In this document: positions 13,279 through 48,950 of the stretch, one piece after another
Layout: every line of letters starts with the position of its first letter
Position numbering within the stretch: the first letter of the stretch is position 1
Source of the DNA: a virus
DNA: 64,000 nt
IMG/VR virus record: IMGVR_UViG_3300010233_000008
Direction: 5' to 3' (one strand)
The notes under the pieces: model-generated
Seen by the model: only the letters and a program-made list of their open reading frames with translations
What the model was told of the DNA's origin: nothing
Database searches by the model: none
Position numbers and translations under genes: made by a program

Positions 13279-13938
13279 ATGGCAAAACATATCAACATTC
13301 CCAATACTAATTATTGGGTATTAGAAGGCGATAGCGCATTAACCAAGGCCGCATTAGAAAGTGGCAGATTAATTAATGAAACATCAATAGAAAATCTCGA
13401 TGAAGTTAAGGCGTTAAAATCGGGTGACGTTGTTTTGGATATAGGAGCTTTGGTTGGAGATACGGCTGAAATTTTTCTAAATCTTGGCTGTGAAGTTTAT
13501 GCTTTTGAGCCATATTTAGATGCGTTTGAATGTTTAGAACATAATTGTCCAAAAGCCAAAAATTATAATGTTGCGGTTGGAGATGGCAGGCAAATGGCTG
13601 CATTGGGAAAATTGGGCGAAGATGGCTCAAATTTTGGAACTAGGATGATGGAATTAAATCAGGGGCAACCATCATTTAGAATAGATGACTTAAATCTTGA
13701 CAAATGTGATTTTGCCAAAATTGATTGCGAGGGATGCGAGCCAATGGTTTTGGATGGAATGAAGAGAACACTGAAAAAGTTCAAGCCAAAATTATTGATA
13801 GAATGTTATGATACTCTATTAAAAAAACAAGGGTTTAGGCGTGAAGATATTTTGGTCCCACTTAAAGAATTGGGATATCAATATCGAGTAGCAATCGGAA
13901 TTGAAAGTAATGATCGTGTAGATTTACTTTTTTACTAA
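13279..13938 (+). CDS. FkbM-family SAM-dependent methyltransferase (219 aa)
   Basis: DIGALVGDTAEIF...GCEVYAFEP...NVAVGDG matches Methyltransf_21/FkbM signature. Confidence 0.65.
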   Translation: MAKHINIPNTNYWVLEGDSALTKAALESGRLINETSIENLDEVKALKSGDVVLDIGALVGDTAEIFLNLGCEVYAFEPYLDAFECLEHNCPKAKNYNVAVGDGRQMAALGKLGEDGSNFGTRMMELNQGQPSFRIDDLNLDKCDFAKIDCEGCEPMVLDGMKRTLKKFKPKLLIECYDTLLKKQGFRREDILVPLKELGYQYRVAIGIESNDRVDLLFY

Positions 13939-13939
13939 A

Positions 13940-14572
13940 ATGTCAGAAAAATTAAAATACGGTCCCGATTGTTTCGACTACAATTATTATAATTCCAATT
14001 TTTCGGAAGCAATGAGATATGATAGTATATCTCAACAACACGAGTTAAAATATAAATTTGATTTTATACAAGATTTTGGAATTACATATAATTCGATATT
14101 ATTTGTCGGGTGTGCGACCGGGAATGAACCAAGATATTTTAGGAATAATGGTAAAGATGCTCAGGGTTGCGATATAAGTAAATATGCAATCAGCCAAGCC
14201 GATTCATCCATTTCTTCTAATATAAGAGAATATGATGGCGAAAAAATATCTTGGCAAGAAGACAATTCTATAGACGTTGTTTGCGCCTTCGATGTTCTAA
14301 CTATTATACCAAAAGAACAAAGAGAAAAATTAATCTCTGAAATGATTAGGGTCGCGTCTAAATTGATAGTTATTAGAACTACATTAAAGGTTCCGGACGA
14401 CTTGACAGATAGTGAATTTGATGGTATAGATGGATACTTATTCAAGCTGGAAACTTTGGCATATTGGGATAATATTTTTACAGAAAATAAAAAGCTCTGG
14501 TTAAAAAAGGCAAAAATTTATTCCATCAAGCATAATCATCGTGAAGCTATAATCGGTTTTGAGAGAGAGTAA
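13940..14572 (+). CDS. class I SAM-dependent methyltransferase (210 aa)
   Basis: motif I ILFVGCATGNE, acidic motif II (QGCDIS) and motif III-like VVCAFDVL. Confidence 0.55.
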   Translation: MSEKLKYGPDCFDYNYYNSNFSEAMRYDSISQQHELKYKFDFIQDFGITYNSILFVGCATGNEPRYFRNNGKDAQGCDISKYAISQADSSISSNIREYDGEKISWQEDNSIDVVCAFDVLTIIPKEQREKLISEMIRVASKLIVIRTTLKVPDDLTDSEFDGIDGYLFKLETLAYWDNIFTENKKLWLKKAKIYSIKHNHREAIIGFERE

Positions 14573-24484: not shown

Positions 24485-24847
24485 GTGAAGAAAAAGAATT
24501 ATTATATTAAAAAGGGTTATGTTAAGAATTGCACCGATCCCAAGATAGAGTTATATGAATCTGGATTTAGGGCAATGTGTTTTCATGTCGCCTATAATCA
24601 TTTTTATCATTTAGTTGCTGACAATACTTTAAGGTTTGCATATGCTTTATGCCATTCTTCACTTCCCATTAAAGATAGGGAGACCGTTGAGGCGTGGTAT
24701 AAATGGAGCAAGGGAAAAACCATCAAAGAAATGATGAATCACGGTCACGAAATCCCTAAATCACTAAAACCTATCGTTAATTCTTATTTTTCAGCTATTA
24801 AGAAAAGAGCTAAAGAGAATAAAGAAGATGTGAATTATTTGTTATGA
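24485..24847 (+). CDS. hypothetical protein (120 aa, GTG start per ORF track)
   Basis: ORF preceding GT-sulfotransferase gene with 4-nt overlap. Confidence 0.4.
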   Translation: MKKKNYYIKKGYVKNCTDPKIELYESGFRAMCFHVAYNHFYHLVADNTLRFAYALCHSSLPIKDRETVEAWYKWSKGKTIKEMMNHGHEIPKSLKPIVNSYFSAIKKRAKENKEDVNYLL

Positions 24848-26190
24848 ACCCGACAATTTGCTTCGTTACTACTTGCAAAAATCGCGCAAATCATATTAAG
24901 GAATGCTTGCCCGCGAATCTGGCAGACAATACCGATCCAAATCATAAATTCATCCTTTTAGATTATAATAGTCAAGATGATCTTATTGATTATCTTAAAT
25001 CTAATCATCAAAAAGATATAAATTCAGGGAGATTAGTAGTTTATAGTTTTAAGAGTCACGGACCATTTAGAATGGCTCATGCCAAAAATATGGCACACCG
25101 TTTAGGTATTCTAGAGGGCGGCAACATATTAGTTAATCTTGATGCTGATAATTTTACTGGTAAGGAATTTTCGACTTATATTCAGGAAAAATTTAAGCAA
25201 GATAATATATTCTTATGGGCAAAAAGGATTATAGGTCAAGCTCATACTAGAGGAACCTCTGGGCGTATCGGGGTATCTTCTAAATCCTTTATTCTGGCTG
25301 GAGGATACGATGAAAAGTATAATACTTGGTCTCCTGACGACAAAGACTTCAACGCTAGATTATGTCGCTTAGATTTTGTTCCTATTGAGATTGATCCTAA
25401 ATTCTTAAAAGCTAAAGTTCATAACGACAATATTAGATTTTCAGAGTATAAACATATTGATCTTGACGAACAAGAAGAAGAATCATTAAGAATCGGAGAT
25501 TCCGATCATACCATAGCTAATTTTGGCAGGATCGGATGTGGTACGGTTTATAAGAATTTCTCTAATGAACCAATAAATATAGACCCAATTCCAACTAGAA
25601 TATTTGGGATAGGGATGCACAAGACAGCGACCACTTCCCTAAATAAAGCATTTAAGATTTTAGGTTATCATTCCGCACATTGGAAATCTCCGCAATGGGC
25701 TAGAAATATTTGGGATGAAATACATAAATTTGGTAAATCCAGAACATTAGAAAAATATTATGCGCTATGCGATTTACCTATCACCTTACTCTATCAATCA
25801 TTGGATATAGCTTATCCCGGAAGTAAATTCATTCTTACTATCAGGGATGAAAATCAATGGCTGGAAAGCGTTAAGAATCATTGGGATTATGATCTAAATA
25901 TTTATAGAGAGAGTTGGGATAATGATGCCTTTACGCATAGAGTTCACAGTGAATTATATGGTAGGAAAATGTTCGATGTGGAAATTTTTATCAAGAGATT
26001 TCGTAGGCATAATGATGAAGTAAGAAATTATTTTAAAAATCGTCCACAAGATTTACTTGTTTTGGATATAGATAAAAAAGATAAGTGGGGAAAACTTTGT
26101 CCATTTTTGAATGTGGGAATACTGAATATTTCTTATCCGGAAGAGTTCAATACGGATAAAAGGGTAAAATTTTTAGCAGAAAATATTTAA
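24844..26190 (+). CDS. fusion protein: GT-A glycosyltransferase (DXD) + sulfotransferase domain (448 aa)
   Basis: N-half ICFVTTCKNR...LVNLDADNF (GT-A/GT2-like DXD); C-half GMHKTATTSL (5'-PSB PKSGTT-like, catalytic Lys) and ILTIRDENQWLESV (3'-PB RD...S motif) of PAPS sulfotransferases. Confidence 0.55.
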   Translation: MNPTICFVTTCKNRANHIKECLPANLADNTDPNHKFILLDYNSQDDLIDYLKSNHQKDINSGRLVVYSFKSHGPFRMAHAKNMAHRLGILEGGNILVNLDADNFTGKEFSTYIQEKFKQDNIFLWAKRIIGQAHTRGTSGRIGVSSKSFILAGGYDEKYNTWSPDDKDFNARLCRLDFVPIEIDPKFLKAKVHNDNIRFSEYKHIDLDEQEEESLRIGDSDHTIANFGRIGCGTVYKNFSNEPINIDPIPTRIFGIGMHKTATTSLNKAFKILGYHSAHWKSPQWARNIWDEIHKFGKSRTLEKYYALCDLPITLLYQSLDIAYPGSKFILTIRDENQWLESVKNHWDYDLNIYRESWDNDAFTHRVHSELYGRKMFDVEIFIKRFRRHNDEVRNYFKNRPQDLLVLDIDKKDKWGKLCPFLNVGILNISYPEEFNTDKRVKFLAENI

Positions 26191-35049: not shown

Positions 35050-38000
35050 ATGCCTGATACATACCAAGAGACAATTCGCCTTCGGGTTGAGGTGGATTCC
35101 TCTGACGTGGGGAAGGCTGTTCAATCCGAACAACAAAGAGCTAATCAAAGATTAAGACAACAATCATCTATTCCTCAATCTCCAAATTTAGGTCGTTCCG
35201 GCGGATTAAATTGGGATCAAATGAGGGGAGTATTTGGAGCTACAAATACTTTATCTGGATTTTTAGGCGGCGGTAGAAATATATTTGGTATTCCTCAATA
35301 TCAAATGATGAGTATGTCTAGGATGTTCGGGGGAATGGGGCATCCAAGTGCATCACATTATCAAAGTATTCGTGCCTCAGAAATAAATAGAATGGCGCGT
35401 GAGGCGGCACAAGCCAGAACAACTAGACCCGGCGTTACTCCGCAAGCTATTGCTTCCGAAACTAAAGCATATTTTGAAACACTAAAAGGATTGAGGCAAA
35501 CTGCCGAACAAATAATTAAAGGATCATTGGCTAGCGGTAAATTAATATTACCAATGACAATGGGTGGTCCTAAATTTGATGCCGCAAGTCAAGCCTATAA
35601 AGATTTGGCTCAATCAATGGGTTATTCTGTTGGAGATTTTCAAAAGAGTGGTCCCTTTTCTCAAGCTTCAATCGGGGCATTGGGCGGAAAATCACAAAAA
35701 TTTGGTAAATCCGATGAAGATAAAGCTTTAATAGAAGAGGAAAAAAAGAGATTAGTATCGGAAGAAATTAAAAAGAAGGTCGAAGCCGATAAAAAAATTG
35801 CCGAACAAGCCATGAAGGCTGCTGCGACTGGAGCTAAATTTGTTGGCGGAATAGAAATAGCTGCTTCCGTAGCTATTCAAATGGGTCAAGTTCTAAAATC
35901 CATTTCTAGTTCATTATCTAATTTCGCTGCTTCGTTTGCTACTGGCGATGTTAGTAAGGCAATGCACGGAGTAGTTGACGCTTTACAGGGTATAGCTCAT
36001 GGAATAGGAGCGGGAACTAGCGCAATAGTTGGGTCTATAGGATTAGTTATTGGTTCGGCATTTGGTCCTATAGGAACAATGATTGGTGCTGCTGCTGGAG
36101 CATTAGTAGGCAATATATTAGGTGGGGCTTTATCTGCTGTAGCTGGATTATTTAATACTTTCATAACAGCTATGGATTCATTGGTAAATAATCTATCCAA
36201 ATGGAATCCTTCATTAGCCGCAATGAATGCCCAACTAAATATCCAAACTATTCTATTTCAAAGACAAATGAGTTATGCCATGCAACCCGCATTATTGGCA
36301 TGGATTCATTTGAAAGAAGTAATCTTAGATAAACTTATATCCTATGCCCCACAAATTAATGCTTTAGCTAATTGGATAGCTAATTTAATTACTGGAATAA
36401 TTAATCTTGCTGGAGAAATATCAGCATGGATAAATGTTATTGTTACTGTAGCAAAAGTTATATATAAATTCCTGATTGCTCCGATATTGGAATTCGGAAA
36501 TATTATAAATATATTATTAAAGCCGGTTAGATGGCTTATTGATTTATTTGGTGGGTTGGGGCATTATATGGAATTGCTTTTCAATCCTATTATAACTTTA
36601 ATTGGTGATTTTGTTGATTTGGGTGGAGGGATAACGAAAATTACTGTAGATTTATTGGATGCCTTTGGATTATTTATTAATGCACTTGCTAATGCTGCGG
36701 ATGAAATGGGTCAGAATGATATAGCAGTATCTCTTGGAAAATCAGCAAATGAACTGATTGATGCTGCATCAAAATTATCTCAAGCTGCAAATCCTCAAAG
36801 TCTTAGTCCTGATGAATTAGCAAAACAAGCGGAAGAATGGGGTAAGGCGTTTATGAATTCATTGGGAGATTTTGCTAAAGCAAATGGTTCTGGTGGTATA
36901 GATAAAAGTAGACCATTGGGGGCAGCACTTCATGGATTAATTGGTGGAAATGTTAGCGGTGGAAATAGTAATGTTCAAACTCCATTAAGTAATATTGGTG
37001 GTGCGGTAGGTGGATTTAATATTGCCGCAAATACCATGATTCAAGCCGCAAACGTAATGGTTGGAGCGGCAAATGTTAATGCTATTGCTGCTGGGGTCAA
37101 TGCCGTAGCCAAGAAATTTAATCCAAATAATCCAGCCGGAGCTACAGCAAAACAAATAGCTGCCGCTAATTTTATTGCCCAAGGTCATGGAAAATATAAC
37201 GTAGATTTTGGATCGCTTTCACAGAATCAATATTCTGCCGGAATTAGCGGTGGGGTGGATATTGGCAATATTCCAAGTCATCGATGGTTTAAAGATAAAA
37301 TATACAAAACTCCGTGGAGTACCGCTTTTGGCTCTCGCAATAGATTAAAATATCCGGGATATCTACCATATGATCAATGGGCTGATATAGTTGGCGCTTC
37401 GCAAGGAACGGGTCTAGGAAAATATCCGGATACCGGATCAACTATTGGTGCTATGGGGTCTAAATATGGATCAAGCGGATCATATTCTGATTCTGGAAAT
37501 ATAGTCGGAGCAATGGGTAATAAATATGGTGGATCAGATTTATCTTCCGGGTTTATGACTTTTCAGCAATGGAGAGTGAGAAAACTTCAACGTGCCGGAC
37601 AAAAGAATCTTAAAGGTCAAAATATAGATGATCCTGATTATTCGGGAGTTGATCCAAATTTAGTTTGGGCATATAAATTAAGAAATAAGTTTGGAATTGA
37701 TGGCAATCCCGGAAACTTACAAGTTCCCCCAAGCGATCTACTCGCCGCATTGCATTATTGGCATACCCAAATGGTACAAGATGCGGGAAGCAGCAGATGG
37801 GATAATGACAGCTTACAGTGGAATGCTGCATTTAAGGCGTATTATGGGCATGATGAACTAGCTGGTTTCGGGGCTACTCCGGGAAGCCCCGCCGATATTG
37901 CCGCTCAAAAAAAATATGGCAATAGTACATCACCAACGACTCAACCCTCAACCCCTAGCGACGCCTTCATTCAATCCATAGGCGGTAAGGTTACTCCAGC

Positions 38001-38370
38001 CCCGTCAGGACAATTAGATAGATATGGTAGAAGTCCTGATGACCCCAATTACTTAAGTGCATTCAAAACCGATCCGCAAAAAGATACAGATTCTTGGAAA
38101 AAAGCCAGAAATATTACTACCGATTCCGAAAGAGCTTTAGCTGAATATAAAAAAGATATCCATAAAACCGGACCACAAATGCCCCACGCTGCCGTAGCCC
38201 TTAACGCTCAATTTAATAACACCTTCAATCAAACTATAGAAGAACAAGAAGTTAATAGGGCGATTTGGCAAGTTCGAGAATTTCTACTTAATACTTTTAA
38301 TTGTCATAGAAATGAAACTCAATTATGGTTAGCAACTTTAGAGGGGTCGATGATTGCGGATAGCGTTTAA
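35050..38370 (+). CDS. tape-measure-like / tail-length protein (1106 aa)
   Basis: N-terminal coiled-coil, central Gly/Ala-rich hydrophobic segments (GAGTSAIVGSIGLVIGSAFGPIGTMIGAAAGALVGNILGGALSAVAG) and length typical of tape-measure proteins; an internal ejection protein is an alternative. Confidence 0.5.
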   Translation: MPDTYQETIRLRVEVDSSDVGKAVQSEQQRANQRLRQQSSIPQSPNLGRSGGLNWDQMRGVFGATNTLSGFLGGGRNIFGIPQYQMMSMSRMFGGMGHPSASHYQSIRASEINRMAREAAQARTTRPGVTPQAIASETKAYFETLKGLRQTAEQIIKGSLASGKLILPMTMGGPKFDAASQAYKDLAQSMGYSVGDFQKSGPFSQASIGALGGKSQKFGKSDEDKALIEEEKKRLVSEEIKKKVEADKKIAEQAMKAAATGAKFVGGIEIAASVAIQMGQVLKSISSSLSNFAASFATGDVSKAMHGVVDALQGIAHGIGAGTSAIVGSIGLVIGSAFGPIGTMIGAAAGALVGNILGGALSAVAGLFNTFITAMDSLVNNLSKWNPSLAAMNAQLNIQTILFQRQMSYAMQPALLAWIHLKEVILDKLISYAPQINALANWIANLITGIINLAGEISAWINVIVTVAKVIYKFLIAPILEFGNIINILLKPVRWLIDLFGGLGHYMELLFNPIITLIGDFVDLGGGITKITVDLLDAFGLFINALANAADEMGQNDIAVSLGKSANELIDAASKLSQAANPQSLSPDELAKQAEEWGKAFMNSLGDFAKANGSGGIDKSRPLGAALHGLIGGNVSGGNSNVQTPLSNIGGAVGGFNIAANTMIQAANVMVGAANVNAIAAGVNAVAKKFNPNNPAGATAKQIAAANFIAQGHGKYNVDFGSLSQNQYSAGISGGVDIGNIPSHRWFKDKIYKTPWSTAFGSRNRLKYPGYLPYDQWADIVGASQGTGLGKYPDTGSTIGAMGSKYGSSGSYSDSGNIVGAMGNKYGGSDLSSGFMTFQQWRVRKLQRAGQKNLKGQNIDDPDYSGVDPNLVWAYKLRNKFGIDGNPGNLQVPPSDLLAALHYWHTQMVQDAGSSRWDNDSLQWNAAFKAYYGHDELAGFGATPGSPADIAAQKKYGNSTSPTTQPSTPSDAFIQSIGGKVTPAPSGQLDRYGRSPDDPNYLSAFKTDPQKDTDSWKKARNITTDSERALAEYKKDIHKTGPQMPHAAVALNAQFNNTFNQTIEEQEVNRAIWQVREFLLNTFNCHRNETQLWLATLEGSMIADSV

Positions 38371-40124
38371 TGCCTTACTATCAAATTTCCTATAACGGAT
38401 ACCAATTACCCTACGTCCGATCCACGATAACTGAAACTCCGCAATATGCCGACGATCAAATTACTTTAGAGGGAACTAATTATAATTTTGAATTCTCCGG
38501 TTATTTAATAGGATCATCTAATACCGCACAATTTGCTACTAATCTAGATGCGATGCGATGTGCATTAACAGTTCCTAGAGAGAATTTATTAGTTCAGTGG
38601 TCGGATGATAATTCTACATGGAATACTCTTTATAATTTTGATAGTTCAAATAATAATGATGCTAATTCAGACAATGCTTGGGGACCGATTCCCGGCGATT
38701 TTAAGGTAAATAAGGTATATGGTGGACGTGCCGCCATGTATTCTTATTCTATTAAGGTATTTCAAAAAAGCTGTTGCCCTTCCGGACAAAATACAACTAA
38801 TGAGATACTTTCAGTAACTAGAAAATGGTTATTTTCTATAGATGGAAATGGATTAACTAATCAAACTGTTTCTGGCACACTAACTATTAAATCTAACTTA
38901 GTTGCTGGCGGAAGTCCTGCTGATAATTATAGATATGTTGTCACCCCTCCATTAGATACTAATTTTCAAAGGGTTAGTCAAAGTTTCACTCAAAGTGAAG
39001 ATGGAAGGCATCTTTATTTTAGTATTTCGGATCAAGAAGTTAAATATACCTTACCTCCACCTATAACTACCGGCAATGCTAATTACGCAGTAAAAATTCA
39101 ATATCAAGGTGGAATGGTTGATATTTCATTGTCGGGAAAATTTTCTGCCGCCGCAAGTATTCCCAAGGCCACAATTTTAACCGCAATATTTAATTTGTGG
39201 GCAGCAAAATTTCCTCCTCCCGGCGGAACGCCTACGGTAATTTATACCGCCAGAGAAATTACCGACGATATTTATAATAATGCCATTTCTTTTAATATGA
39301 CGGCTCAAGTCGGAATGGCAAATTTGCCTCAATCTGGGGCTTCTCCCGCACCTTATTATTCATTAGGTTTAAGTTCTATAATTACTTCTCCTCCCGGCTC
39401 AAATGGAAGTGCCGAATTAATTTTACCTTACGGCTCTAGTGGAACTGCCGGTGGCTCTAGTGGAGCTATCGCCAGACCTCCATCTATTTATGATAATTGT
39501 ACTTCTACTACTCCCGGATATCCGGGAGTCAATGGGAGTCCGGGATTAACTTCTCAAGGGGGATCGGGTGGAACTGGAAATCCTTTATCTACTTATGGTA
39601 ATTATCCTTCTACCGCCGGTATTTCAACTCAACATCAAAATTCACCGTGGATAGCTTACCATGAAAAAATGAGTTGGGAAATAGATAACAATATAGTCTA
39701 CTTTACTCCTAAAGTAGAGGGTGAAAAACCCATTATCCAACAAACAGGCGTACCGAAAGTAACTTGTATTCAGGCTGGATATTCAAGTCAAATGTGTGCA
39801 CAAGCCAGTGATGCCGCCCCTCCTAACGCTCCATTTTATCTTTGTTCAGGCTCTAATCCTCAAGCTTATATGCAGAATTGTTTCATAGAACCTTCTAATC
39901 CTGTAATTATAGGTGATGGAACGGTAAATAGATATACGGTTCATTGGAGATATGTAATGGTTCTGAATAATAATATTGAGATTCTATCCGATATCCCAAA
40001 TCTTCAATATCCTAATGATCCAATTCGTCCTCCGGGAGCCACAAATACCATTACCTTCCAACCAGCCAATACAGCTAATCCCGCCGGTACATTTTCTGGC
40101 GTAGTAACTACGCCACAATCATGA
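38370..40124 (+). CDS. tail protein (584 aa)
   Basis: translationally coupled (TAATG) to upstream gene; Gly/Ser/Thr/Pro-rich beta-type protein. Confidence 0.5.
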   Translation: MPYYQISYNGYQLPYVRSTITETPQYADDQITLEGTNYNFEFSGYLIGSSNTAQFATNLDAMRCALTVPRENLLVQWSDDNSTWNTLYNFDSSNNNDANSDNAWGPIPGDFKVNKVYGGRAAMYSYSIKVFQKSCCPSGQNTTNEILSVTRKWLFSIDGNGLTNQTVSGTLTIKSNLVAGGSPADNYRYVVTPPLDTNFQRVSQSFTQSEDGRHLYFSISDQEVKYTLPPPITTGNANYAVKIQYQGGMVDISLSGKFSAAASIPKATILTAIFNLWAAKFPPPGGTPTVIYTAREITDDIYNNAISFNMTAQVGMANLPQSGASPAPYYSLGLSSIITSPPGSNGSAELILPYGSSGTAGGSSGAIARPPSIYDNCTSTTPGYPGVNGSPGLTSQGGSGGTGNPLSTYGNYPSTAGISTQHQNSPWIAYHEKMSWEIDNNIVYFTPKVEGEKPIIQQTGVPKVTCIQAGYSSQMCAQASDAAPPNAPFYLCSGSNPQAYMQNCFIEPSNPVIIGDGTVNRYTVHWRYVMVLNNNIEILSDIPNLQYPNDPIRPPGATNTITFQPANTANPAGTFSGVVTTPQS

Positions 40125-41776
40125 GCCAATTAGTATTAAATACTTGTACTTTGTCCGATGAAGACGGGCATAAGTATAACGTCTATGACCCTCCGAAGGG
40201 TGGAAGACCTACTAATGTATTTACCATGCACACCGGCGCTTCGCGTCCGGGCATCGGTAGATATTTAATGACTAAATCTGATTTTGAACAATTAGATGAA
40301 ACAGGGACATTAACTATAAATGGTCCTCCCGGTCCCGGAGTTTCTATTCCAGTGGTCGTCATGGCGGCTGTACCTTATGCTACTGGACCCTCGGCTGATT
40401 CTAGTGCATTAGGCACTAATATGATGGAGGTAATAGTTGCTGATATGAGAGAGCAACTAACTACTCCAATGATTTCCTGTGCTTTTAATGTTCAGCAACA
40501 AGGATTCCCATATACAACGCCCGATACCCCAATATTTTACACACAAACTATTAACGGATCAATAGCTTGGAGTTGGAATGATGTATTAGATAACCTAACT
40601 AACTCTCCAGCCTTCCCTCAAAATATAATATTTCCTAATCCCGATCCTTCATCTTGGCAACCCAGAAACCTAATTTATGATGGATGTTCATGTGCTAAGA
40701 TTATAGATGATATTGGCGAACAAGTTTATGTGGTAACTGGATTCGACTATACTCAAGATAATTTTCTAGACGGTATTCAATATTATCCTCCGGGAAATTC
40801 TCAAGATGGGAATACGGATGATTCTGGAAATACGAATATATTAAATAACGCCAAGAATTATGTAATAGCCGGAAGCGATCCCAATAACCCTACTAATTCT
40901 AATGAAAATGTTATAGGTACGGATTCATGGTTGAGATTTAAGACTAGATTCCCGGCTATAGTTAGAGTTGAGTTTAAGATTTATGATGCTACCAATCCAT
41001 TTCCTATTCCTACCTCTTTACCTCAGCCCCCTCCTGTTTGGACGGCTGGCACACCTTCATTCCAAAGAACCTATAGTAAAGACATAATCAATAACTCTGG
41101 TAGTGCCAATGATAATTATGTTCTACCGTTAAATTATGGAAATTACATAGCGATAATCTCTGGAAATACGATCTATAATCAGGCTGAATTAGATACGGTA
41201 GCTTTGGATATAGGTAATAGATTTCTAAGTAATCTTCAATTGCCTTTAGCTGAAAAAGTATTCGCTGGAATTTGGCCATTAATTCCTGATGGATTAGTTA
41301 GAGGAATTCAATGGGTGAGTAATAGGATGGGGGCGACAACTAGGGTTAGATTTAATAATGAAAAAGATTTTGACCCAGTACACGAAAATAAACGAGTAGT
41401 GGATGCTATATCTAATCAATTAATAGTGGGGTTAGGAGTCACTAACTCGTCGGTAGGTCCGAGCGGAAGTAGGCAGATCTGGACGCCAACTACTCATGTT
41501 TTGGTTAAGTTCAATACGAATACATCTTTGACTTCACTTTATACTGGATATTTTATGTTTGGGAGTGGGTCTGCTTCTGGTATTCCTCCTATTGGTTTCA
41601 GTCAAGGTCCGGAGTGTTATATTTGTAATTTGAATGAAATCATTTTGAATAATGAATGGCCCACCAATGCCGGTGAATTCGGCTGGGGGGATATTGTAAA
41701 TCCAGCATATATTGGCCCAAATGGGACCATGCCATTAGTTTATGTAGACCATCCGGGCGCTGGTCCTTGTGATTAA
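40121..41776 (+). CDS. tail protein (551 aa)
   Basis: ATGA start/stop overlap; position after tape-measure-like gene. Confidence 0.5.
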   Translation: MSQLVLNTCTLSDEDGHKYNVYDPPKGGRPTNVFTMHTGASRPGIGRYLMTKSDFEQLDETGTLTINGPPGPGVSIPVVVMAAVPYATGPSADSSALGTNMMEVIVADMREQLTTPMISCAFNVQQQGFPYTTPDTPIFYTQTINGSIAWSWNDVLDNLTNSPAFPQNIIFPNPDPSSWQPRNLIYDGCSCAKIIDDIGEQVYVVTGFDYTQDNFLDGIQYYPPGNSQDGNTDDSGNTNILNNAKNYVIAGSDPNNPTNSNENVIGTDSWLRFKTRFPAIVRVEFKIYDATNPFPIPTSLPQPPPVWTAGTPSFQRTYSKDIINNSGSANDNYVLPLNYGNYIAIISGNTIYNQAELDTVALDIGNRFLSNLQLPLAEKVFAGIWPLIPDGLVRGIQWVSNRMGATTRVRFNNEKDFDPVHENKRVVDAISNQLIVGLGVTNSSVGPSGSRQIWTPTTHVLVKFNTNTSLTSLYTGYFMFGSGSASGIPPIGFSQGPECYICNLNEIILNNEWPTNAGEFGWGDIVNPAYIGPNGTMPLVYVDHPGAGPCD

Positions 41777-44744
41777 AGCTGGACAATTTATTAGACAGGA
41801 TGGCGGCGGCTTAGTTAGGGGAGCTAAGGGCGGATTTGTTCGGGCAAAATATGATAATGATACAGAGGCTTGTCCGGGATGCACTTGCGGATGCTGTCCC
41901 ATATGTCTTAATCAACAATATATAATAACTTACGCTTTTGATAATGGAAGTGGTCAGGTTCAGCAACAAGCAATAACAAATCAGGGGTTTGTTCCCGGTG
42001 ATTTAGCTTTTCCATTAGATACCCAACAAATATGCTATATATTTGGTGCCGAAACGTGCGGTACGCCATTTCCTACTCTACCTCAATTGGTTTATGGAAA
42101 ATTCGGAACAAGTGCAATAACTTTTCCCGTAACCTCTACCAGCACAACCACTACTACATCTACCAGCACAAATTCTACTTCTAGTTCGACCTCAACAGAT
42201 ACTTTTACATCTTTTTCAACCACATCTTCATTTGAAGATAATTATTGCGAAACATTAAATAGTGATTTTTGTACTTGGGCCGTATATTTGGTGAAATGGG
42301 TATGGCAACAGACCACAGATATTGAGGGAGACCATACCGGAGTTTACGTTTATGCTGTTTACATATTAAATTATGATGGAAGTACAAGTACATCTTCATC
42401 TTCTACTTCTGGATTTTCTCCAGAATGCGGATTAAGCCCTGTCGGAACGTATGAATTATATTGTACCGGAATTTATACCGATTCGTTTATTCCTCCACCA
42501 ATATATTCTGGTTTGTTTGGATCGTCCAGTACAACCACAACAACCAGCAGTTCGACAAATACTTTTTCTGTAACTGGTACGAGTTCGTTCACAAGTGAAA
42601 GCTCTTCTACTTCCACTTATACCACAAGTTCAACAACAACATCTACCACTGGTACAACGACTTCAACTAGTACGACAACATATTCCACGACTTCCGCCAC
42701 TACATCAACTTCCACAAGCTCAGATACTTTTACCTCCACCAGTACAACTACAACCTATAGTACAAGTCGATCAACCTCTAGTTCTTCTGCTTGGTTAAAT
42801 TTTGAGAATGCTGGCGATGCTTTTTATAACCCAATTGCTCCAGACGGTGGACCTTGGCTTTTAGGATTAAATCCGTATTCTGGTGGAATAGGTGATTACC
42901 TTACTCTTAAGGATTTCAATAAATGCTTCTCTCCTACCGTAACAATATCTCCCGGTGGTGGATTTATAAATTATGGAACGGTAACATCTACTTCGACTTC
43001 TTCGGTTTATTTATATAGTAGCAGTACCTCTACTCAAACATTTACCACTGCATCCGTTAGTTCAACTTCGATTACTTCAACGTCTACGATTGGCACTTCA
43101 ACTACAACAATTGGTACATCCACTTCCACCAGCACAACGATATCTACCTCTACTTCGATATCAATATTTACATCAACGTCTAGCTCGACAACAAGCGACA
43201 CATTTACTTTTACATCAACAAATTACGATCTCTCATTTAGTTCCTCAACGGTACAGGGATTTTCATCGTACTCCAGTGCGTCGGCATGTATTGGTTGCAA
43301 TGATTGCTGTACCGGATATCAGATAAAAATAAGTAGCGGATTGTCTGGTAGTCCGTTTTATGGAAATGTCACTCAAATTATATGTACGGAACCAAACGTG
43401 AGTTCCGGATCAACAATTGGGTGTTTGCTGGGCGATCCATATATACAAGATTTTTATGAAAGTTTTTTAAATCCAACAGTAGACAATACTACTTTTGCTC
43501 AAGGATGCTTTTGGGAGGCATGTCCGAGTTTGGTTGGATCAAGTCCACCGCAAACAGTAGAAGCGTATTTATGGCTTGCCTGCGATACTTGGTATATAGC
43601 AGCGAGTGATGCAACGCAGCCCGGAATTGGTGGGGTTTATTGGCTGTTTTCTGCCCCTTATGATGGCGATTGCCCACCAGAAAATTTTTCATTAGTTCAA
43701 TATGGACCTCACAATTATAATGCCTTCCACGGTTATGGATCATTTTCTACCTATGGAAGTTCAACTTCTACCTCTACCTCAACATACACTTCAACATCAT
43801 TAACTTTTGGAACTAGCACTTCAACGTCTAGTTCCACTTTTACAAATACTTATACTTCCACAACTACTTCAACCACTTCAACTTTTACTTTTACAAGTTC
43901 TAGCACAGGAACATTCAGTTCGACATCTAGTTCATATTATACTTCTAGTTCATATTCATATATATCATTTACCTCTAGCTCAACCTCAATATCTACTTCT
44001 CTAGAAGGATCATATGCTACGGACGATGGAGCTACCGCTACCTTAGAATGTATAAATTGTTGTGGTACATGTCCAAGCAGTACATCAAGTAAAACTTCCT
44101 GTACCTCATTTACCTCGGTATCTTTTTCCACCTCAACTACAACTTCTACAAGCTCATCATTTAGTGTTTCCGGTACGTCTACTGCTACAATAACTTCCAC
44201 CTCAACTAAATCAGAAACATTTATATCTATATCTACTTCGGTAACTTGTCCTAGTACAAATACCTCTACATCTAGTTCTCCTCCTACGTCATCTACTTCT
44301 ACATCGCCATGCACGGCTTGCATTAACTGTTCTTCCGATCCAGCTACTAATGATTGTGGTTCATTGTCCGATACTTATGTAGCTTCATTTAATATAACAG
44401 TTAGAAATCCATTAACGGGATTATTCCAGAATTATCCGGTCAGTGTAACTATTACTTATACAAATGATGGGACTTGCTCTTGGGTCGGATCATCCGCCCC
44501 TATTTTTCCCAATACTCCGGCATTTGATGTAAGCGTATTTTTAACTAACCAAGGCGACCCAACTTCTCCGTGTGTATTTGAAATGGATGTTGAAGCCAAC
44601 AATGATTTCGATGATGGATGTAACGTGCAAACACTCCCCTCAAACCCCCTTTGTGCCGTATTTTGCACTACTCCGGTAAATAATTATAACCAAAATACTG
44701 CCTGTACTCCCGGCTCAAGTATCTCTGGCGCGATGGTTTCTTAA
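41769..44744 (+). CDS. Ser/Thr-rich mucin-like tail-associated protein with Cys-rich modules (991 aa, GTG start)
   Basis: extreme poly-S/T tracts (TSTSTTTTTSTSTNSTSSSTSTDTFTSFSTTSS...) interrupted by Cys/Trp-containing globular segments; all overlapping antisense/alternate-frame ORFs are low-complexity artefacts. Confidence 0.6.
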   Translation: MIKAGQFIRQDGGGLVRGAKGGFVRAKYDNDTEACPGCTCGCCPICLNQQYIITYAFDNGSGQVQQQAITNQGFVPGDLAFPLDTQQICYIFGAETCGTPFPTLPQLVYGKFGTSAITFPVTSTSTTTTTSTSTNSTSSSTSTDTFTSFSTTSSFEDNYCETLNSDFCTWAVYLVKWVWQQTTDIEGDHTGVYVYAVYILNYDGSTSTSSSSTSGFSPECGLSPVGTYELYCTGIYTDSFIPPPIYSGLFGSSSTTTTTSSSTNTFSVTGTSSFTSESSSTSTYTTSSTTTSTTGTTTSTSTTTYSTTSATTSTSTSSDTFTSTSTTTTYSTSRSTSSSSAWLNFENAGDAFYNPIAPDGGPWLLGLNPYSGGIGDYLTLKDFNKCFSPTVTISPGGGFINYGTVTSTSTSSVYLYSSSTSTQTFTTASVSSTSITSTSTIGTSTTTIGTSTSTSTTISTSTSISIFTSTSSSTTSDTFTFTSTNYDLSFSSSTVQGFSSYSSASACIGCNDCCTGYQIKISSGLSGSPFYGNVTQIICTEPNVSSGSTIGCLLGDPYIQDFYESFLNPTVDNTTFAQGCFWEACPSLVGSSPPQTVEAYLWLACDTWYIAASDATQPGIGGVYWLFSAPYDGDCPPENFSLVQYGPHNYNAFHGYGSFSTYGSSTSTSTSTYTSTSLTFGTSTSTSSSTFTNTYTSTTTSTTSTFTFTSSSTGTFSSTSSSYYTSSSYSYISFTSSSTSISTSLEGSYATDDGATATLECINCCGTCPSSTSSKTSCTSFTSVSFSTSTTTSTSSSFSVSGTSTATITSTSTKSETFISISTSVTCPSTNTSTSSSPPTSSTSTSPCTACINCSSDPATNDCGSLSDTYVASFNITVRNPLTGLFQNYPVSVTITYTNDGTCSWVGSSAPIFPNTPAFDVSVFLTNQGDPTSPCVFEMDVEANNDFDDGCNVQTLPSNPLCAVFCTTPVNNYNQNTACTPGSSISGAMVS

Positions 44745-44753
44745 CCCCGAACT

Positions 44754-46577
44754 ATGAAAATAAATTGCAAAAACTTTTCTGAATGTAATCGGAACGATGG
44801 TGGATGTTGCGCCATTTCCGATAAATCAGGTAGCAAATTACCTTCTTATGGATATTGCCAAATCTGTAAAGTTAGAGACCCAATTAATTCAGATATCAAA
44901 TCCCCACTTTTAGAAGAAGTAAAAAAGATAGAACCAAAGCCCATGCCAAAATGCGGAAAATGCCAACGCAAGGAATCTTCCCGACAAACTCAAAAAAAAA
45001 CTGAACCTTATGAAGTAGTTATTAAATGCCATCAATCTCCCGGCGATATTACTTTACTTCATGGAGCAATTAGAGAAGTACAAAAAGCATATCCCGGAAA
45101 ATTTAGATTTTCCCCAGATACTCATTTTAACGATCTATTTTATAATTCACCTTGGGTAATTAATAGAGAACATCTTAAAGACCCAATAACTATTGAATCT
45201 GGTCAATGTTGGAGTTGGGCAAACCAAAGATCGGATCATTTAGTTCAGGAATTTACCAGATCATTAATTGGACAATTAAATGATAAATTGAAATTAGATT
45301 TGAAAGTTCCGTATATGACGGAATTTAGGGGGTGTTTGATATTAAGTGAAGAGGAAAAGAATAGGGATGTAACGGATATAATTGGGGAATATGATAGCTA
45401 TTTTTTGATAGATGCCGGATGGAAAAGTAACGATTACGATGTAAAGCGTGCCCCAACAGAGACTTATCAACAAGTGGTTGATGGGTTATTGGGGAAAGTA
45501 AAATTTGTACAAATGGGCCGAAATGATCCAAATGCTCCGGACAGACACCCCCCACTTAAAAACGTAATAAATGCAATAGGATTAACTGAAAACCGTCGAG
45601 ATTTTCTTAGATTGGTTTATAGATCATCCGGGGTGATTACTCCGATTAGTTGGCCACTTCATGCAAGCGCTGCCATACCGATGCACTCTAATCCAAACAA
45701 GTTAAGACCATGTGTGGTTCTTGCTGGTGGTAGAGAACCAGTTTCAATGATCCAATATCCGGGGCATAGCGTTTTAAGCATGGTGGGAAAATTAGACTGC
45801 TGCCTTAACGGTGGCTGCTTCAAAACATCCATAGGTCATAAGCCTAATGATATGAAGGGAGTTTCAGATGAGAGATGCTTAAGGCCGGAAAATGGAATAG
45901 CTAAGTGCATGAGGATGATAACCGCACCGCAAATAATTTCCGCCGTTGAAAGCTATTTAGTTCCTCCAGAAAAGCCAAAAATCTGTATAGCAAGCATTGC
46001 AACAAATGACATGAGGGAGTTGAGGGATTTAACTTTCCCAAATAAAAAGCAATATGCAGAAAAACACAATTATGGGTTTGTCGGATGGGAAGATGTTTTC
46101 CACGAAAAAGATAAGCAAGATCGCCCCGCTTCGTGGAGCAAACTACCATTAATCCTTCAATTATTTTCTGAATATAATTGGATATTTTGGTCCGATGCTG
46201 ACTCTGTAATTACAAATATGGATAAGAAGATCGAAGATTTTATTGATAACGATTACGACTTGATAATTGCAGCAGATAGGAACGGGCGAAACTGCGGACA
46301 GTTTTTAATAAAGTCAAGTCAGCAAAGTTGGGATTTTCTACGTCGGGCATGGGAACAAACAGAATTTATAAATGACGGGTGCTGGGAGCAAAGTGCGATA
46401 GGGAAATTGTTAAGAGAAAATCCAAATCAAATTAGAGAAAAAATTGTACCTCAAAATTGGTTCAATTCTTATCCTGACATTTGGAATAAGAATGATTTTT
46501 TACTTCATGCTCCAAGGGATGATCGTTGGAATCGAATTGATCCTCTAAAAAATGCTTTGAATGGAGAGAAAATATGA
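44754..46577 (+). CDS. Zn-ribbon + GT9 heptosyltransferase-like + GT-A (DXD, GT34-like) glycosyltransferase (607 aa)
   Basis: N-term Cys clusters (CKNFSECN..CC, CQICK, KCGKCQ); VVIKCHQSPGDITLLHGAIREVQKAYP and GVITPISWPLHASAAIPM (GT9 motifs); C-domain SWSKLPLIL...WIFWSDADSVITN (GMA12/MNN10-like DXD). Confidence 0.6.
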   Translation: MKINCKNFSECNRNDGGCCAISDKSGSKLPSYGYCQICKVRDPINSDIKSPLLEEVKKIEPKPMPKCGKCQRKESSRQTQKKTEPYEVVIKCHQSPGDITLLHGAIREVQKAYPGKFRFSPDTHFNDLFYNSPWVINREHLKDPITIESGQCWSWANQRSDHLVQEFTRSLIGQLNDKLKLDLKVPYMTEFRGCLILSEEEKNRDVTDIIGEYDSYFLIDAGWKSNDYDVKRAPTETYQQVVDGLLGKVKFVQMGRNDPNAPDRHPPLKNVINAIGLTENRRDFLRLVYRSSGVITPISWPLHASAAIPMHSNPNKLRPCVVLAGGREPVSMIQYPGHSVLSMVGKLDCCLNGGCFKTSIGHKPNDMKGVSDERCLRPENGIAKCMRMITAPQIISAVESYLVPPEKPKICIASIATNDMRELRDLTFPNKKQYAEKHNYGFVGWEDVFHEKDKQDRPASWSKLPLILQLFSEYNWIFWSDADSVITNMDKKIEDFIDNDYDLIIAADRNGRNCGQFLIKSSQQSWDFLRRAWEQTEFINDGCWEQSAIGKLLRENPNQIREKIVPQNWFNSYPDIWNKNDFLLHAPRDDRWNRIDPLKNALNGEKI

Positions 46578-46771
46578 CTACCTTTACCTCAACTTCTTAC
46601 GCAAATTCCCACAGCGAATCCATTCAAGAGTCATATTTTAATCCTTGGACTAATTTCCAAACCTATCAAGAGCCAAACAAAGATAAATCAATTTGCACTT
46701 GCTCTAAACAGGAATTAATGGTTGCGGGATGTAATTGTGGGCATATTAAAAGATATTCGGAGAAAAGGTGA
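46574..46771 (+). CDS. hypothetical Cys-containing protein (65 aa)
   Basis: ATGA-coupled small ORF. Confidence 0.35.
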   Translation: MTTFTSTSYANSHSESIQESYFNPWTNFQTYQEPNKDKSICTCSKQELMVAGCNCGHIKRYSEKR

Positions 46772-47484
46772 TAGGTAAACGACCTAAACGAAATCCTCCA
46801 GCAATAAGATTAAATAGACCAGTAGGGAAAAGAGTAGAAATTACACAGCCAAAAATAATTCATCATAAAATAATTGAACCAAAAAAACCAAAAGAAATAA
46901 TTAAAGAAATACCCATAGAAAAAATTAAATTATCTCCACAACAAATAAAAGAAAATTGCCTAAAAACATTGCAGCAATTATATGACGAAAGGCATGGGGA
47001 ATGCGATAAGGGGGCCAAGCATAGTTACATAAGTCTATACGAAAAAATATTAGAACCTTTCAGGAATATTCCAGTCACATTTGTCGAGCTTGGTATATTT
47101 TCTGGATGGTCACTAGATTTGTGGTCAAGATATTTTATTGATGAAAACACAAAAATAATTGGTGTGGATATTTCGCCATCAATTGACAACAAAACCATTT
47201 CAGATATTCGCCAACAAATTATTATTGGAAACTGTACAGACCCATCAACATTTGAATCAATTGATAAAATTGATATCGTAATTGACGATGCGAGCCACAC
47301 ATTAAAAGATCAAACAGAATCATTCAATTTATTATTTCCACTCCTAAATATTGGCGGAATATATTGTATTGAAGATATCCAAAATGAGAGCAATAAAAAT
47401 GAATTGCTGTTGCTTTTTCCGTTTGAAGTTCATGCTTTTAATAAATGTTCAGACGATACTATTTTAATTGCAAGAAAAACTTGA
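46768..47484 (+). CDS. TylF/CmcI-like class I methyltransferase (238 aa)
   Basis: FVELGIFSGWSLDLW...IIGVDIS...VIDDASH pattern of the macrocin O-MTase / cephalosporin hydroxylase-like SAM fold. Confidence 0.5.
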   Translation: MIGKRPKRNPPAIRLNRPVGKRVEITQPKIIHHKIIEPKKPKEIIKEIPIEKIKLSPQQIKENCLKTLQQLYDERHGECDKGAKHSYISLYEKILEPFRNIPVTFVELGIFSGWSLDLWSRYFIDENTKIIGVDISPSIDNKTISDIRQQIIIGNCTDPSTFESIDKIDIVIDDASHTLKDQTESFNLLFPLLNIGGIYCIEDIQNESNKNELLLLFPFEVHAFNKCSDDTILIARKT

Positions 47485-47516: not shown

Positions 47517-47789
47517 ATGAAAAAACAACCCCCTCAAACTTATCAACCCGAACCCCCAAAATTTCCTCCAGCCCAATTTAAAATGCCTCCCAATCCCATC
47601 CTTCCAGTATTATGGTCTGATACTTTAGATGTTCAATACGATCAGCAAAACGCATTACTTAGGTTTTCAGCTACAGTTGAAGGCCATAAAATCGAAGTAG
47701 CGAGAGTTCAAACTTCATTGGATCATGTCAAGAAAATGGTAGATATGTTTTGCAATGCCCTTAATTATTATCCGACTAAACCCGAATGA
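47517..47789 (+). CDS. hypothetical Pro-rich protein (90 aa)
   Basis: ORF downstream of consensus promoter. Confidence 0.45.
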   Translation: MKKQPPQTYQPEPPKFPPAQFKMPPNPILPVLWSDTLDVQYDQQNALLRFSATVEGHKIEVARVQTSLDHVKKMVDMFCNALNYYPTKPE

Positions 47790-48193
47790 CAAAAATCAGA
47801 CCTAATTTATATCTGGGTTCTTGGCAATCCGTAAACGCTAAAGACTTAGAGCAAAATAAAATTACCGCAATTCTTTGTTGTGACCATAATCTAGTTCCAG
47901 ATTTACATTCTATTCGTGAAAAATATAAGTGGATATGCGTTCATTTGCATGATAATGAATTACCGAATCCTTCTCATGTTTTAGAAATTTCAGCAAATAT
48001 TTTAGATCAATTATTGTGTAATAATGAAACTGTATTGGTTCATTGTATTGCCGGATCAAATCGCGCCCCTTCTGTCGTTTGCAAATACTTAACTAATGAA
48101 TATGGTGGGGGTTGGGATGAAAACTGGAATCAATTAAGAAAATTAAGAGCGGCTGTCGGTAAATATTCTAAGGTTATGCAATATTTAAAATGA
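47786..48193 (+). CDS. dual-specificity protein/carbohydrate phosphatase (135 aa)
   Basis: active-site VHCIAGSNRAPSVV (CX5R P-loop) with upstream HLHD general-acid loop and N-terminal LYLGS start typical of DSPs. Confidence 0.65.
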   Translation: MTKIRPNLYLGSWQSVNAKDLEQNKITAILCCDHNLVPDLHSIREKYKWICVHLHDNELPNPSHVLEISANILDQLLCNNETVLVHCIAGSNRAPSVVCKYLTNEYGGGWDENWNQLRKLRAAVGKYSKVMQYLK

Positions 48194-48687: not shown

Positions 48688-48707
48688 ATTTAACTTTCTA
48701 GCTCTGC

Positions 48708-48950
48708 TTAATCGGCAGGGCTATTTTTATTGTATTCATTCCAATAATCTTCAAGCGAATCTCTCAACAATCTCCCAAAATTCATTAAATCTTTATCACT
48801 CCAACAAAATGGAGTTCCAAACCCAAATTCTTCAAATAACAAATCTATCCCCTTATCATCAATCCATTGCTTAAGAATTTTATGATAATCGGGAATTTTT
48901 CCTCCGTTTCCAATTACAAATGAATCCTGTTCGTCGGTTTCTATTGGCAT
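48708..48950 (-). CDS. hypothetical protein (80 aa)
   Basis: - strand ORF in compact leftward array. Confidence 0.4.
   Translation of the reverse strand: MPIETDEQDSFVIGNGGKIPDYHKILKQWIDDKGIDLLFEEFGFGTPFCWSDKDLMNFGRLLRDSLEDYWNEYNKNSPAD

Follow-up and report, generated by a model that had tools for sequence, protein, structure and literature searches.

A candidate phage O-glycosylation system pairing a Ser/Thr-rich, Cys-modular protein with a cysteine-finger GT9-fold/GT34-type glycosyltransferase

The serine-rich repeat glycoproteins of Gram-positive bacteria are cellular adhesins, not virion proteins; they depend on accessory Sec export, and their glycosylation by GtfA/GtfB and extenders such as GlyE is initiated by a GT4 and not a GT9 enzyme. 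The LPS core heptosyltransferases WaaC, WaaF, and WaaQ belong to CAZy family GT9, match the GT-B domain of the phage glycosyltransferase described here better than any others in fold and profile, and have the GD and MHxAAA motifs in common with it. In contrast, their acceptor is lipid-linked Kdo or heptose, and we know of no four-cysteine finger in them. A64R of PBCV-1 is a eukaryotic algal virus enzyme that elongates the N-linked glycans of the major capsid protein; this capsid-glycan transferase combines glycosyltransferase and methyltransferase domains, but has neither a GT9 domain nor a substrate with Ser/Thr (S/T) tracts. The bacterial autotransporter heptosyltransferases TibC and Aah, which form dodecameric rings, are soluble cytoplasmic enzymes encoded beside the Ser-rich surface proteins that they hyperglycosylate, TibA and AIDA-I, respectively; the phage enzyme has the same GT9-type GT-B fold, and its neighbor is the candidate substrate. 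The substrates of TibC and Aah are autotransporter beta-helices, whereas the candidate here is a putative phage tail protein with low-complexity tracts and no autotransporter family match in Pfam. According to PMC12363180 and PMC12582341, phage-encoded enzymes glycosylate capsid and tail-tube proteins in the mycobacteriophages Che8 (gp110), Corndog (gp38), and Myrna; the work is cited in both as Freeman et al. 2023. These phages likewise modify their own structural proteins. However, as described there, the targets are the capsid and tail tube in actinobacterial hosts, and here the candidate target is the tracts of a tail protein. The preliminary description of this DNA knew of no such system in phages; this calls for a qualification, virion glycosylation being established in mycobacteriophages, where both enzymes and targets differ. 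Searches of INPHARED (50,697 cultured-phage records) with the GT-B domains of the present phage and of loci L010 and L035 gave no match, and the mycobacteriophage enzymes are thus not close relatives. The portal protein of the phage also had no match in an INPHARED protein search, and a literature search linking polyserine, phage, and GT9 or heptosyltransferase found nothing relevant.

The window, which is the whole 64-kb stretch of viral DNA analyzed, contains a distal tail module that begins with a probable tape-measure protein of 1106 aa (35050..38370, plus strand, as are all features below), assigned from a weak match to phrog_991 (E = 0.0028), size, and position. Two genes with overlapping stop and start codons follow (584 and 551 aa, 38370..41776); they have no family match in Pfam or PHROG, and gene order suggests their role in the tail. 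The next ORF (41769..44744, GTG start) encodes a 991-aa protein that is the candidate glycosylation substrate. Gene order after the weakly identified tape-measure protein suggests, with less certainty, that it is the last tail gene, and its product may accordingly be a virion tail component. The protein is 40% S/T (S 200, 20.2%; T 199, 20.1%) and contains 39 cysteines. Cys-bearing modules alternate with long S/T tracts at aa 120-150 (tract 1, 42099..42245), 252-338 (tract 2, 42507..42803), 410-480 (tract 3, 42978..43226), 662-744 (tract 4, 43734..44006), and 772-819 and 826-844 (tracts 5 and 6, 44061..44315), the boundaries being approximate. The Cys clusters are CPGCTCGCCPIC (aa 35-46), CIGCNDCC (507-514), CINCCGTC (761-768), and CTACINC (848-854). 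The Cys-rich C-terminal globular domain (aa 845-991, 44301..44741) is homologous to the C-terminus of the protein encoded just 5' of the transferase in locus L092 and is a candidate for the receptor-binding end. As in mucin-like and serine-rich repeat proteins, long S/T tracts separate folded modules, and tract length differs among homologues. A full-length search returned a single match, P0025, which is the L001 protein; the module at aa 481-661 had no match in a homology search, and scans of viral and metagenome contigs found no conserved module. The AF2 model, built from a two-sequence alignment, is uninformative (pLDDT 31.7).

The window has 41 stop-to-stop ORFs with a length of 150 aa or more, and only this one has a 30-aa stretch with at least 70% S/T, so its enrichment exceeds chance, and all five tract segments detected in the window (5/5) lie inside it. 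All ten S/T codons are in use in the tracts and TRF found almost no tandem DNA repeats, which indicates that the tracts are maintained at the amino-acid level and not as microsatellite DNA. They are mixtures of Ser and Thr with aromatic residues, and Pro is almost absent. With this composition they could be beta-rich, structured spacers for which sugar is unnecessary. In a rival reading, the tracts would be nothing but linkers, flexible or structured, the transferase and the other sugar enzymes would act on another phage target, such as the capsid or tail tube as in mycobacteriophages, and the adjacency of the genes would reflect only co-expression in a late operon. In its favor, two further glycosyltransferase/methyltransferase cassettes are found among the head and tail genes, the phage virion glycosylation recounted in the mycobacteriophage sources concerns the capsid and tail tube, and poly-serine linkers are described in the literature as joining modules of carbohydrate-active enzymes. 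Nevertheless, no other ORF in the window carries an S/T tract, and we regard the linker explanation as unlikely, also in light of the gene pairing discussed below.

Only 9 nt (TAACCCCGAACTATG) separate this ORF from the next one (44754..46577), which encodes a bifunctional glycosyltransferase of 607 aa, as judged from sequence and predicted structure. The ORFs, their spacing, and the composition thus agree with the pairing originally proposed. The N-terminal region (aa 1-81, 44754..44996) is Cys-rich, with Cys pairs at aa 5/11, 18/19, 35/38, and 66/69, and is encoded as a separate small ORF in L004 (9617-9850) and L092. Its earlier designation as a Zn-ribbon is no more than plausible; the region is modeled with a pLDDT of ~30 and no predicted beta-barrel. 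The second region (aa 86-402, 45009..45959) is a GT-B domain of GT9 fold with an SPGD motif (D98) and the invariant residues K231, R282, and E328. The window transferase has no match to the Pfam GT9 family (PF01075) at E <= 0.1; its two-Rossmann fold is nearest to heptosyltransferases, and the GT9 assignment is made through fold and homology. The SPGD Asp lines up with the GD motif of WaaF and 3tov, and (P)LHASAA lines up with MHVAAA in the C-lobe (MHxAAA motif). A predicted four-cysteine finger (C349, C355, C375, C385; 45798..45908) is inserted before the last C-lobe helix. The third region (aa 410-602, 45981..46559) is a GT34-type GT-A domain, with a PF05637 match above the gathering score (E = 2.2e-20, 73.9 bits, cut-off 23), a GT-A fold, and an invariant DxD (D481-A-D483; motif WIFWSDADSVITN). 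The GT9-like/GT-A fusion of the preliminary description is therefore retained. With the conserved SPGD Asp, the invariant K231/R282/E328, and the invariant DxD, the transferase looks competent on sequence grounds.

The finger invites a comparison with TibC, in which a four-cysteine metal (iron) finger is formed by Cys339/342/358/370 (PMC4358343). In both enzymes the cysteines are inserted late in the C-lobe, and those of the phage enzyme lie between the last strand and the last helix, in a topologically similar manner. On the other hand, a 64-sequence profile of the whole domain reaches TibC/Aah at E = 0.14 (14.5 bits), a finger-only profile did not find TibC, the N-terminal beta-barrel of TibC is absent from the window transferase, and the latter, unlike TibC/Aah, carries a fused second transferase of the GT-A type. 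Kinship to TibC/Aah, which the preliminary description had named as an analogy, is not detectable in sequence, and membership in their family finds no support.

The closest structural match of the GT-A domain is PBCV-1 A64R, a viral capsid protein glycan enzyme. A64R is also the top PDB match of phage GT-A enzymes that glycosylate 5hmC (bioRxiv 10.1101/2023.12.21.572611), which raises the question of whether the transferases hypermodify phage DNA bases. The 5hmC-glycosylating phage enzymes adjoin 5mYOX/TET, ThyS-like, or C5-methyltransferase genes (bioRxiv 10.1101/2023.12.21.572611). Pfam scans of the window, which covered the listed ORFs of at least 100 aa other than short ones lying inside longer ORFs or overlapping them, detected none of these genes and no 5-hydroxymethyl-pyrimidine pathway genes. 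Moreover, the GT-B enzymes of DNA-glycosylating phages resemble T4 beta-GT and not GT9, and the transferase is located in the tail operon; DNA as the acceptor is very improbable.

The GT-B domain falls into a GT9 subfamily of its own, which is unnamed and marked by four invariant cysteines. The finger cysteines are invariant across 15, 64, and 68 aligned homologues, and 130 of the 149 representatives match a regular expression for the finger. When the whole library was searched with phmmer, only 1,212 clusters were returned, which sets the subfamily sharply apart. PF01075 is matched by 60 of the 64 viral homologues and 57 of the 68 representatives, and the subfamily profile matches WaaF at E = 5e-8. 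Because the GT-B domain is nearest to WaaF and WaaC in fold and profile, and its bacterial homologues are common in Gram-negative phyla, the transferase could be thought to alter a glycan of the host envelope, for example a capsule or an LPS-core-like structure, and so the cell surface, for superinfection exclusion or progeny release. In contrast, the window protein has no match among the NCBIfam WaaC/WaaF/WaaQ equivalogs, and its bacterial relatives score about 18-22 bits against LPS heptosyltransferase equivalogs with cut-offs of 170-467 bits. The finger is a feature of the family that WaaF and WaaC, to our knowledge, lack, and the gene sits at the end of the tail operon, immediately past the S/T gene. 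The Pfam scans also turned up no gene of the Gtr, Wzx, or Wzy type in the window. An envelope target also leaves the family-wide S/T adjacency unexplained, and we consider it decidedly unlikely.

This adjacency is seen at three levels. In close relatives, an S/T-rich, Cys-modular homologue lies directly 5' of the transferase in all five informative cases (L001, L002/L003, L004, and L092), where the transferase is 50-60% identical and the upstream protein has 33-37% S+T and the same module order; a sixth relative was left out of the count as its contig stops 108 nt 5' of the transferase. A metagenome scan with an alignment of the close transferases found only two loci, both distant. A set of 63 dereplicated distant viral loci, with GT-B domains 27-38% identical, contains 31 S/T-tract ORFs; 14 of these terminate no more than 600 bp 5' of the transferase (expected 4.1%, binomial p = 6e-12), and 24 are upstream against 7 downstream (p = 0.002). 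The kilobase directly upstream holds 21 tracts per 100 kb, compared with about 2-5 in most other bins, and control regions of phiKZ and T4 have 2 tracts per 100 kb, both in non-coding frames. Approximately 22% of these loci have an S/T protein immediately 5' of the transferase, and in ~41% a tract occurs no more than 8 kb away. PHROG scans assigned no family to the N-terminal domains of eight viral poly-Ser proteins. In bacteria, 35 of 80 loci (44%) have tracts within 6 kb; the density is 11-15 per 100 kb in the 1 kb flanking each side of the gene, and the ~235 kb lying farther away than 4-5 kb contain 0. Many of the bacterial neighbors are poly-Ser lipoproteins with an RR-x-FL signal, a lipobox Cys, and poly-Ser. 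In distant phages and bacteria, the finger GT-B family therefore has a link in position with S/T-tract proteins that is supported but not universal, and the earlier observation of a substrate-like protein adjoining the enzyme extends to the family. If the tracts were linkers unrelated to the enzymes, their clustering within 1 kb of this GT9 subfamily in unrelated phages and bacteria would be left unexplained.

The fusion partners of the finger GT9 domain vary and include GT34, Mannosyl_trans3, GT2, methyltransferases, and Erv1/Alr. A constant finger GT9 domain with changing partners is consistent with a role in initiation, the extenders being variable. An S/T tract within the transferase itself is absent from all 149 top representatives, so enzyme and tract-bearing protein are separate polypeptides. 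The Erv1/Alr sulfhydryl oxidase was detected by tblastn, among the window and loci L001-L092, in L039 only. It is possible, with chances slightly short of even, that the finger GT9 is the initiating enzyme of a widespread, undescribed cytoplasmic poly-Ser/Thr O-glycosylation, which would act on bacterial poly-Ser lipoproteins, in the uncultivated phages of these bacteria, and, in the present phage, in building a glycosylated, mucin-like tail fiber. The bacteria concerned are environmental and include Verrucomicrobiota, Planctomycetota, Acidobacteriota, Gemmatimonadota, and others.

For the window itself, we favor, with moderate confidence and from sequence evidence, a system in which the S/T tracts of the tail protein are O-glycosylated in the host cytoplasm, in a manner like that of TibC/Aah or GtfA/B. 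Late in infection, the tail operon would yield the 991-aa protein, with Cys-rich globular modules spaced by Ser/Thr tracts, and the gene immediately downstream would yield the soluble bifunctional transferase. The Cys-finger GT9-fold domain would place the first sugar on many of the tract hydroxyls, the fused GT34-type domain, metal-dependent in view of its DxD, would add a second, and the neighboring methyltransferase would cap the sugar. The product may be a distal tail fiber or adhesin with stiff, hydrated, and protease-resistant 'bottle-brush' spacers. We infer the tail protein as acceptor, the order of the domains, the identities of the sugars, and the biological benefit. If correct, phage virion glycosylation would reach beyond mycobacteriophages to tail fibers and to a very different enzyme family, and a GT9 subfamily of ~1,200 clusters that has neither a curated name nor a cultured-phage member would gain a candidate function. 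It would also provide a testable explanation for the frequent poly-serine tracts in the proteins that several little-studied bacterial phyla secrete, and a glycan-coated receptor-binding fiber would bear on host recognition, protease resistance, and the annotation of metagenomic phage proteins.

Other sugar genes are present in the window. An FkbM methyltransferase, a Methyltransf_11 protein, and an 808-aa GT9-containing protein (13279..16998) were identified by Pfam; the 808-aa protein has two GT9-like units without a Cys finger and a C-terminal GT-A-like region. A GT2-sulfotransferase fusion is encoded at 24844..26190 (PF17784, E = 8e-30; PF10111 and PF00535). The preliminary description had pointed to a cassette at 13-17 kb and a GT-sulfotransferase at 24.8 kb, and both are confirmed. 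The two cassettes may serve the same glycan as the transferase; the earlier proposal of one methylated and sulfated glycan joining all three cassettes is speculative. Heptose, the sugar proposed there, loses ground with the scores far below the heptosyltransferase cut-offs, and the Pfam scans found no heptose-pathway or other sugar-nucleotide gene in the window; an ADP-heptose donor must come from the host pool. Downstream of the transferase, the methyltransferase and phosphatase noted earlier are both borne out. The former (46768..47484) is a class I SAM methyltransferase of the Methyltransf_24/CmcI-like type (PF13578, E = 3.9e-6; phrog_21658, E = 1e-24) and probably a sugar O-methyltransferase; L001 and L092 likewise have this domain 3' of the transferase, and relatives exist in which the two are fused. 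The latter (47786..48193) is a dual-specificity phosphatase (DSPc, PF00782, E = 6.3e-17), which in L001 likewise lies directly 3' of the transferase. The rightward late gene block ends with a terminator-like hairpin (48699..48723), a 10-bp stem followed by TTTTTATT.

Two adjacent genes are found at the end of the tail module exactly as claimed in the preliminary description: one encodes a 991-aa protein (41769-44744, +) and the other a 607-aa transferase (44754-46577, +), with a gap of 9 nt between them. A probable tape-measure gene and two more tail-module genes precede the 991-aa gene, and its start overlaps the stop of the gene before it. The protein comprises 20.2% Ser, 20.1% Thr, and 3.9% Cys, and six Ser/Thr-dominated (S/T) tracts of 19-87 residues each separate its Cys-bearing modules. 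Among 41 long ORFs in the window, it alone contains an S/T tract. All ten Ser/Thr codons are used in the tracts and these do not consist of tandem DNA repeats, which argues that the S/T composition is selected at the protein level. The larger tracts mostly start directly after an aromatic-Gly motif (YGKFGTS, LFGSSS, NYGTVTS, TYGSSTS), with equivalents in the homologues at related loci (L002 7378-9987; L004 6836-9607; L001 6964-8859), and this motif may be a module-boundary mark or a recognition element. The phage encodes a tRNA-Thr(UGU) (27782-27853) that may help to translate the Thr-rich protein; the ACA share of Thr codons is 35% (46/133) in the tracts vs 22% (56/259) in six other long genes.

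The AF2 model of the transferase (15 homologues as input; mean pLDDT 76.6) has three parts, namely an N-terminus rich in Cys and modelled at low confidence (aa 1-81), then the GT-B (aa 86-402) and GT-A (aa 410-602) domains, and fold searches with it gave mutually consistent results. Pfam assigns the C-terminus to GT34 (E = 2.2e-20) and gives no GT9 domain in the window transferase. A GT-B profile of 64 dereplicated viral homologues, 60 of which individually match PF01075, detects WaaF at E = 5e-8, and TibC at only E = 0.14. Conserved residues include the catalytic GD motif (D98), K231, R282, and E328 in the GT-B domain, and the DxD (D481, D483) in the GT-A domain. Four cysteines (C349, C355, C375, C385), invariant across all alignments made, form an insertion ahead of the last GT-B helix that resembles the iron finger of TibC (PMC4358343). 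Since a profile of the finger region alone does not detect TibC, this likeness is treated as analogy, not homology. Two transferase homologues (L052 8001-10199 and protein P0013) carry an intein with LAGLIDADG and splicing domains, both at one site within the invariant GGKxDFT|(C)KWW motif, beside the conserved Lys equivalent to K231. Intein sites are usually essential and highly conserved.

The pairing of the two genes is retained in close relatives of the transferase (six, 50-60% identity). Immediately upstream of the transferase, L001, L002/L003, and L004 encode a homologous Cys-modular protein of 631-923 aa with 33-37% S+T, in which modules are conserved and tract positions are kept while tract lengths differ. 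In L092, the 800 nt 5' of the transferase code for the homologous C-terminal domain and a separate Zn-ribbon ORF, and the contig of P0004 is uninformative, as it stops 108 nt 5' of the transferase. The pairing is thus present in 5/5 informative close relatives. The S/T-rich tail gene of L001 (6964-8859) runs on in a second reading frame (8679-9923; 415 aa, 44% S+T), a stretch to which gene calling had assigned small antisense ORFs; the frame change, which falls inside the low-complexity region, either stems from sequencing or is programmed.

GT-B relatives at 27-38% identity occur in 149 IMG/VR loci, of which 80 were taken, leaving 63 after dereplication. An S/T tract lies within 8 kb in 26/63, and the first upstream kilobase contains tracts at 21 per 100 kb vs ~2-5 per 100 kb in most other bins. 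Of 31 S/T-tract ORFs, 14 have their end no more than 600 bp upstream of the transferase ORF, vs 4.1% expected (p = 6e-12). S/T tracts number 2 per 100 kb in control regions of phiKZ and T4, and neither is in a coding frame. The viral neighbours are either a folded N-terminal domain of ~80-190 residues followed by a pure poly-Ser tail, or a large Cys-rich protein of several modules with poly-Ser between them (L011, L013, L054, L063), which is also the architecture of the 991-aa protein. Contigs encoding poly-Ser neighbours range from 28% to 67% GC.

The GT9 subfamily also occurs in at least 565 bacterial MAG loci from Verrucomicrobiota, Planctomycetota, Acidobacteriota, Gemmatimonadota, Eremiobacterota, and Bacteroidota. 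Among 80 of these loci, 35 have tracts near the gene, clustered within 1 kb of it and in a conserved spot 2-4 kb upstream; beyond 4-5 kb, ~235 kb contain zero tracts. Many bacterial neighbours, from Gemmatimonadota, Acidobacteriota, and related MAGs, carry a Tat-like RR-x-FL signal ahead of a lipobox Cys, after which come as many as several hundred serines in a row (L105 2005-3072; L110 2199-3344; L139 2378-3070; L106, L108, L171, L129, L134, L122). If the tracts were unglycosylated linkers and the transferase acted on another phage target, or if it modified the host envelope, this positional association in phages and bacteria alike would be left unexplained. The closest cellular relative (L007/L093; Phycisphaeraceae MAG JANQQT010000285.1, 1-9011; 40% identity) is a GT9 + Mannosyl_trans3 fusion. 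It is flanked on one side by a GT34 + Methyltransf_24 fusion and on the other by a divergently transcribed gene, whose product is 1548 aa or longer, has YD/RHS-like repeats (by eye), and starts with MSSSSSSSSSSSS. This locus is the enzyme set of the phage in a different arrangement.

NCBIfam has no model for the Cys-finger GT9 subfamily, and its LPS heptosyltransferase equivalogs score ~20 bits vs cut-offs of 170-467 bits. A phmmer search of 1.84 billion representatives finds 1,212 clusters at E <= 1e-3, of which 261 remain at E <= 1e-30. The Cys motif is present in 130/149 top representatives, and an S/T tract within the transferase itself in 0/149. GT-B domain queries of cultured-phage records find no cultured phage with the subfamily. 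In 68 long representatives with the finger-bearing GT9 domain, the fusion partners are Mannosyl_trans3 (10), Erv1/Alr sulfhydryl oxidase (7: P0027, P0037, P0060, P0118, P0119, P0132, P0143), GT2 (4), Methyltransf_24 (4), GT34 (3), and, for the rest, other methyltransferases and GTs. The GT9 domain, as the constant element, thus acts like an initiator, and its changing partners act like extenders or decorators. An Erv1/Alr-type domain is also found at L039 (9048-9284), and Erv1 is absent from the window. Fusion to Erv1 fits substrates rich in both Cys and S/T, and suggests that cytoplasmic disulfide formation is coupled with glycosylation of such proteins.

The most economical reading of these sequences, and a fairly probable one, is cytoplasmic O-glycosylation of the S/T tracts of the tail protein. 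The GT9 domain would initiate sugar transfer onto the tracts, the GT34 domain would extend the glycan, and the Methyltransf_24 enzyme, which recurs beside or fused to transferase relatives, would cap the sugar. The nature of the sugar, the order of the two transfers, any part that the upstream cassettes (13.3-17 kb and 24.8 kb) play, and the role of the DSP phosphatase are inference. Such glycosylation would run similarly to TibC/Aah and to the GtfA/B-GlyE system of serine-rich repeat proteins. DNA hypermodification by the transferases is disfavoured. Pfam finds no 5hmC-type pathway genes in the window, and the gene context is unlike that in bioRxiv 10.1101/2023.12.21.572611. The same study also shows that chlorovirus A64R as top match is by itself no proof of a protein acceptor. 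The preliminary description was not aware of such a dedicated decoration system in phages, which needs qualifying: the proposed glycosylation would parallel the virus-encoded virion glycosylation of chloroviruses and mycobacteriophages, the latter phage-encoded, and GT-B enzymes encoded alongside Ser-rich proteins are already known to hyperglycosylate them in the cytoplasm. Literature searches found nothing on this GT9 subfamily, its poly-Ser/Thr protein association, or its phage-tail-protein use; the subfamily, the systematic nature of the association, and the use on a tail protein are apparently new.

The window represents most of a tailed-phage genome (64 kb of a 72-kb JGI contig) with ~37% GC and three tRNA genes. 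Head genes encode the portal (1650-3233; no match in a cultured-phage search), a Mu-F-like protein (5670-6491), the major head protein (10093-11349), and a Mu gp36-like protein (12417-13253). Between the head and tail blocks, a 1329-aa protein (19360-23349, +) starts with an InPase domain (PF18823, E = 1.7e-36) and continues with ~1,150 low-complexity residues in which P, Q, N, K, and E abound. Tail genes run rightward up to ~48.5 kb, where a strong terminator-like hairpin (48699-48723) ends the block, and replication genes then run leftward. A perfect 12/12 sigma-70 consensus (TTGACA, 16 nt, TATAAT; 47481-47508, +) lies just 5' of ORF 47517, before the phosphatase gene; promoter-like sites in the window are overall no commoner than in shuffled sequence. 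A 120-aa ORF (55700-56062, -) matches PF18909, the dATP/dGTP diphosphohydrolase N-terminal domain (E = 7e-23), which is the family of the MazZ enzymes found in phages whose DNA contains 2-aminoadenine. No PurZ-like (adenylosuccinate-synthetase-like) ORF is detected by Pfam in the window, which covers all but ~8 kb of the contig. The leftward early region encodes a DUF4326 protein (51209-51541, -; E = 4.5e-15) and an SPFH/Band-7 protein (51538-52422, -; E = 1.6e-13).
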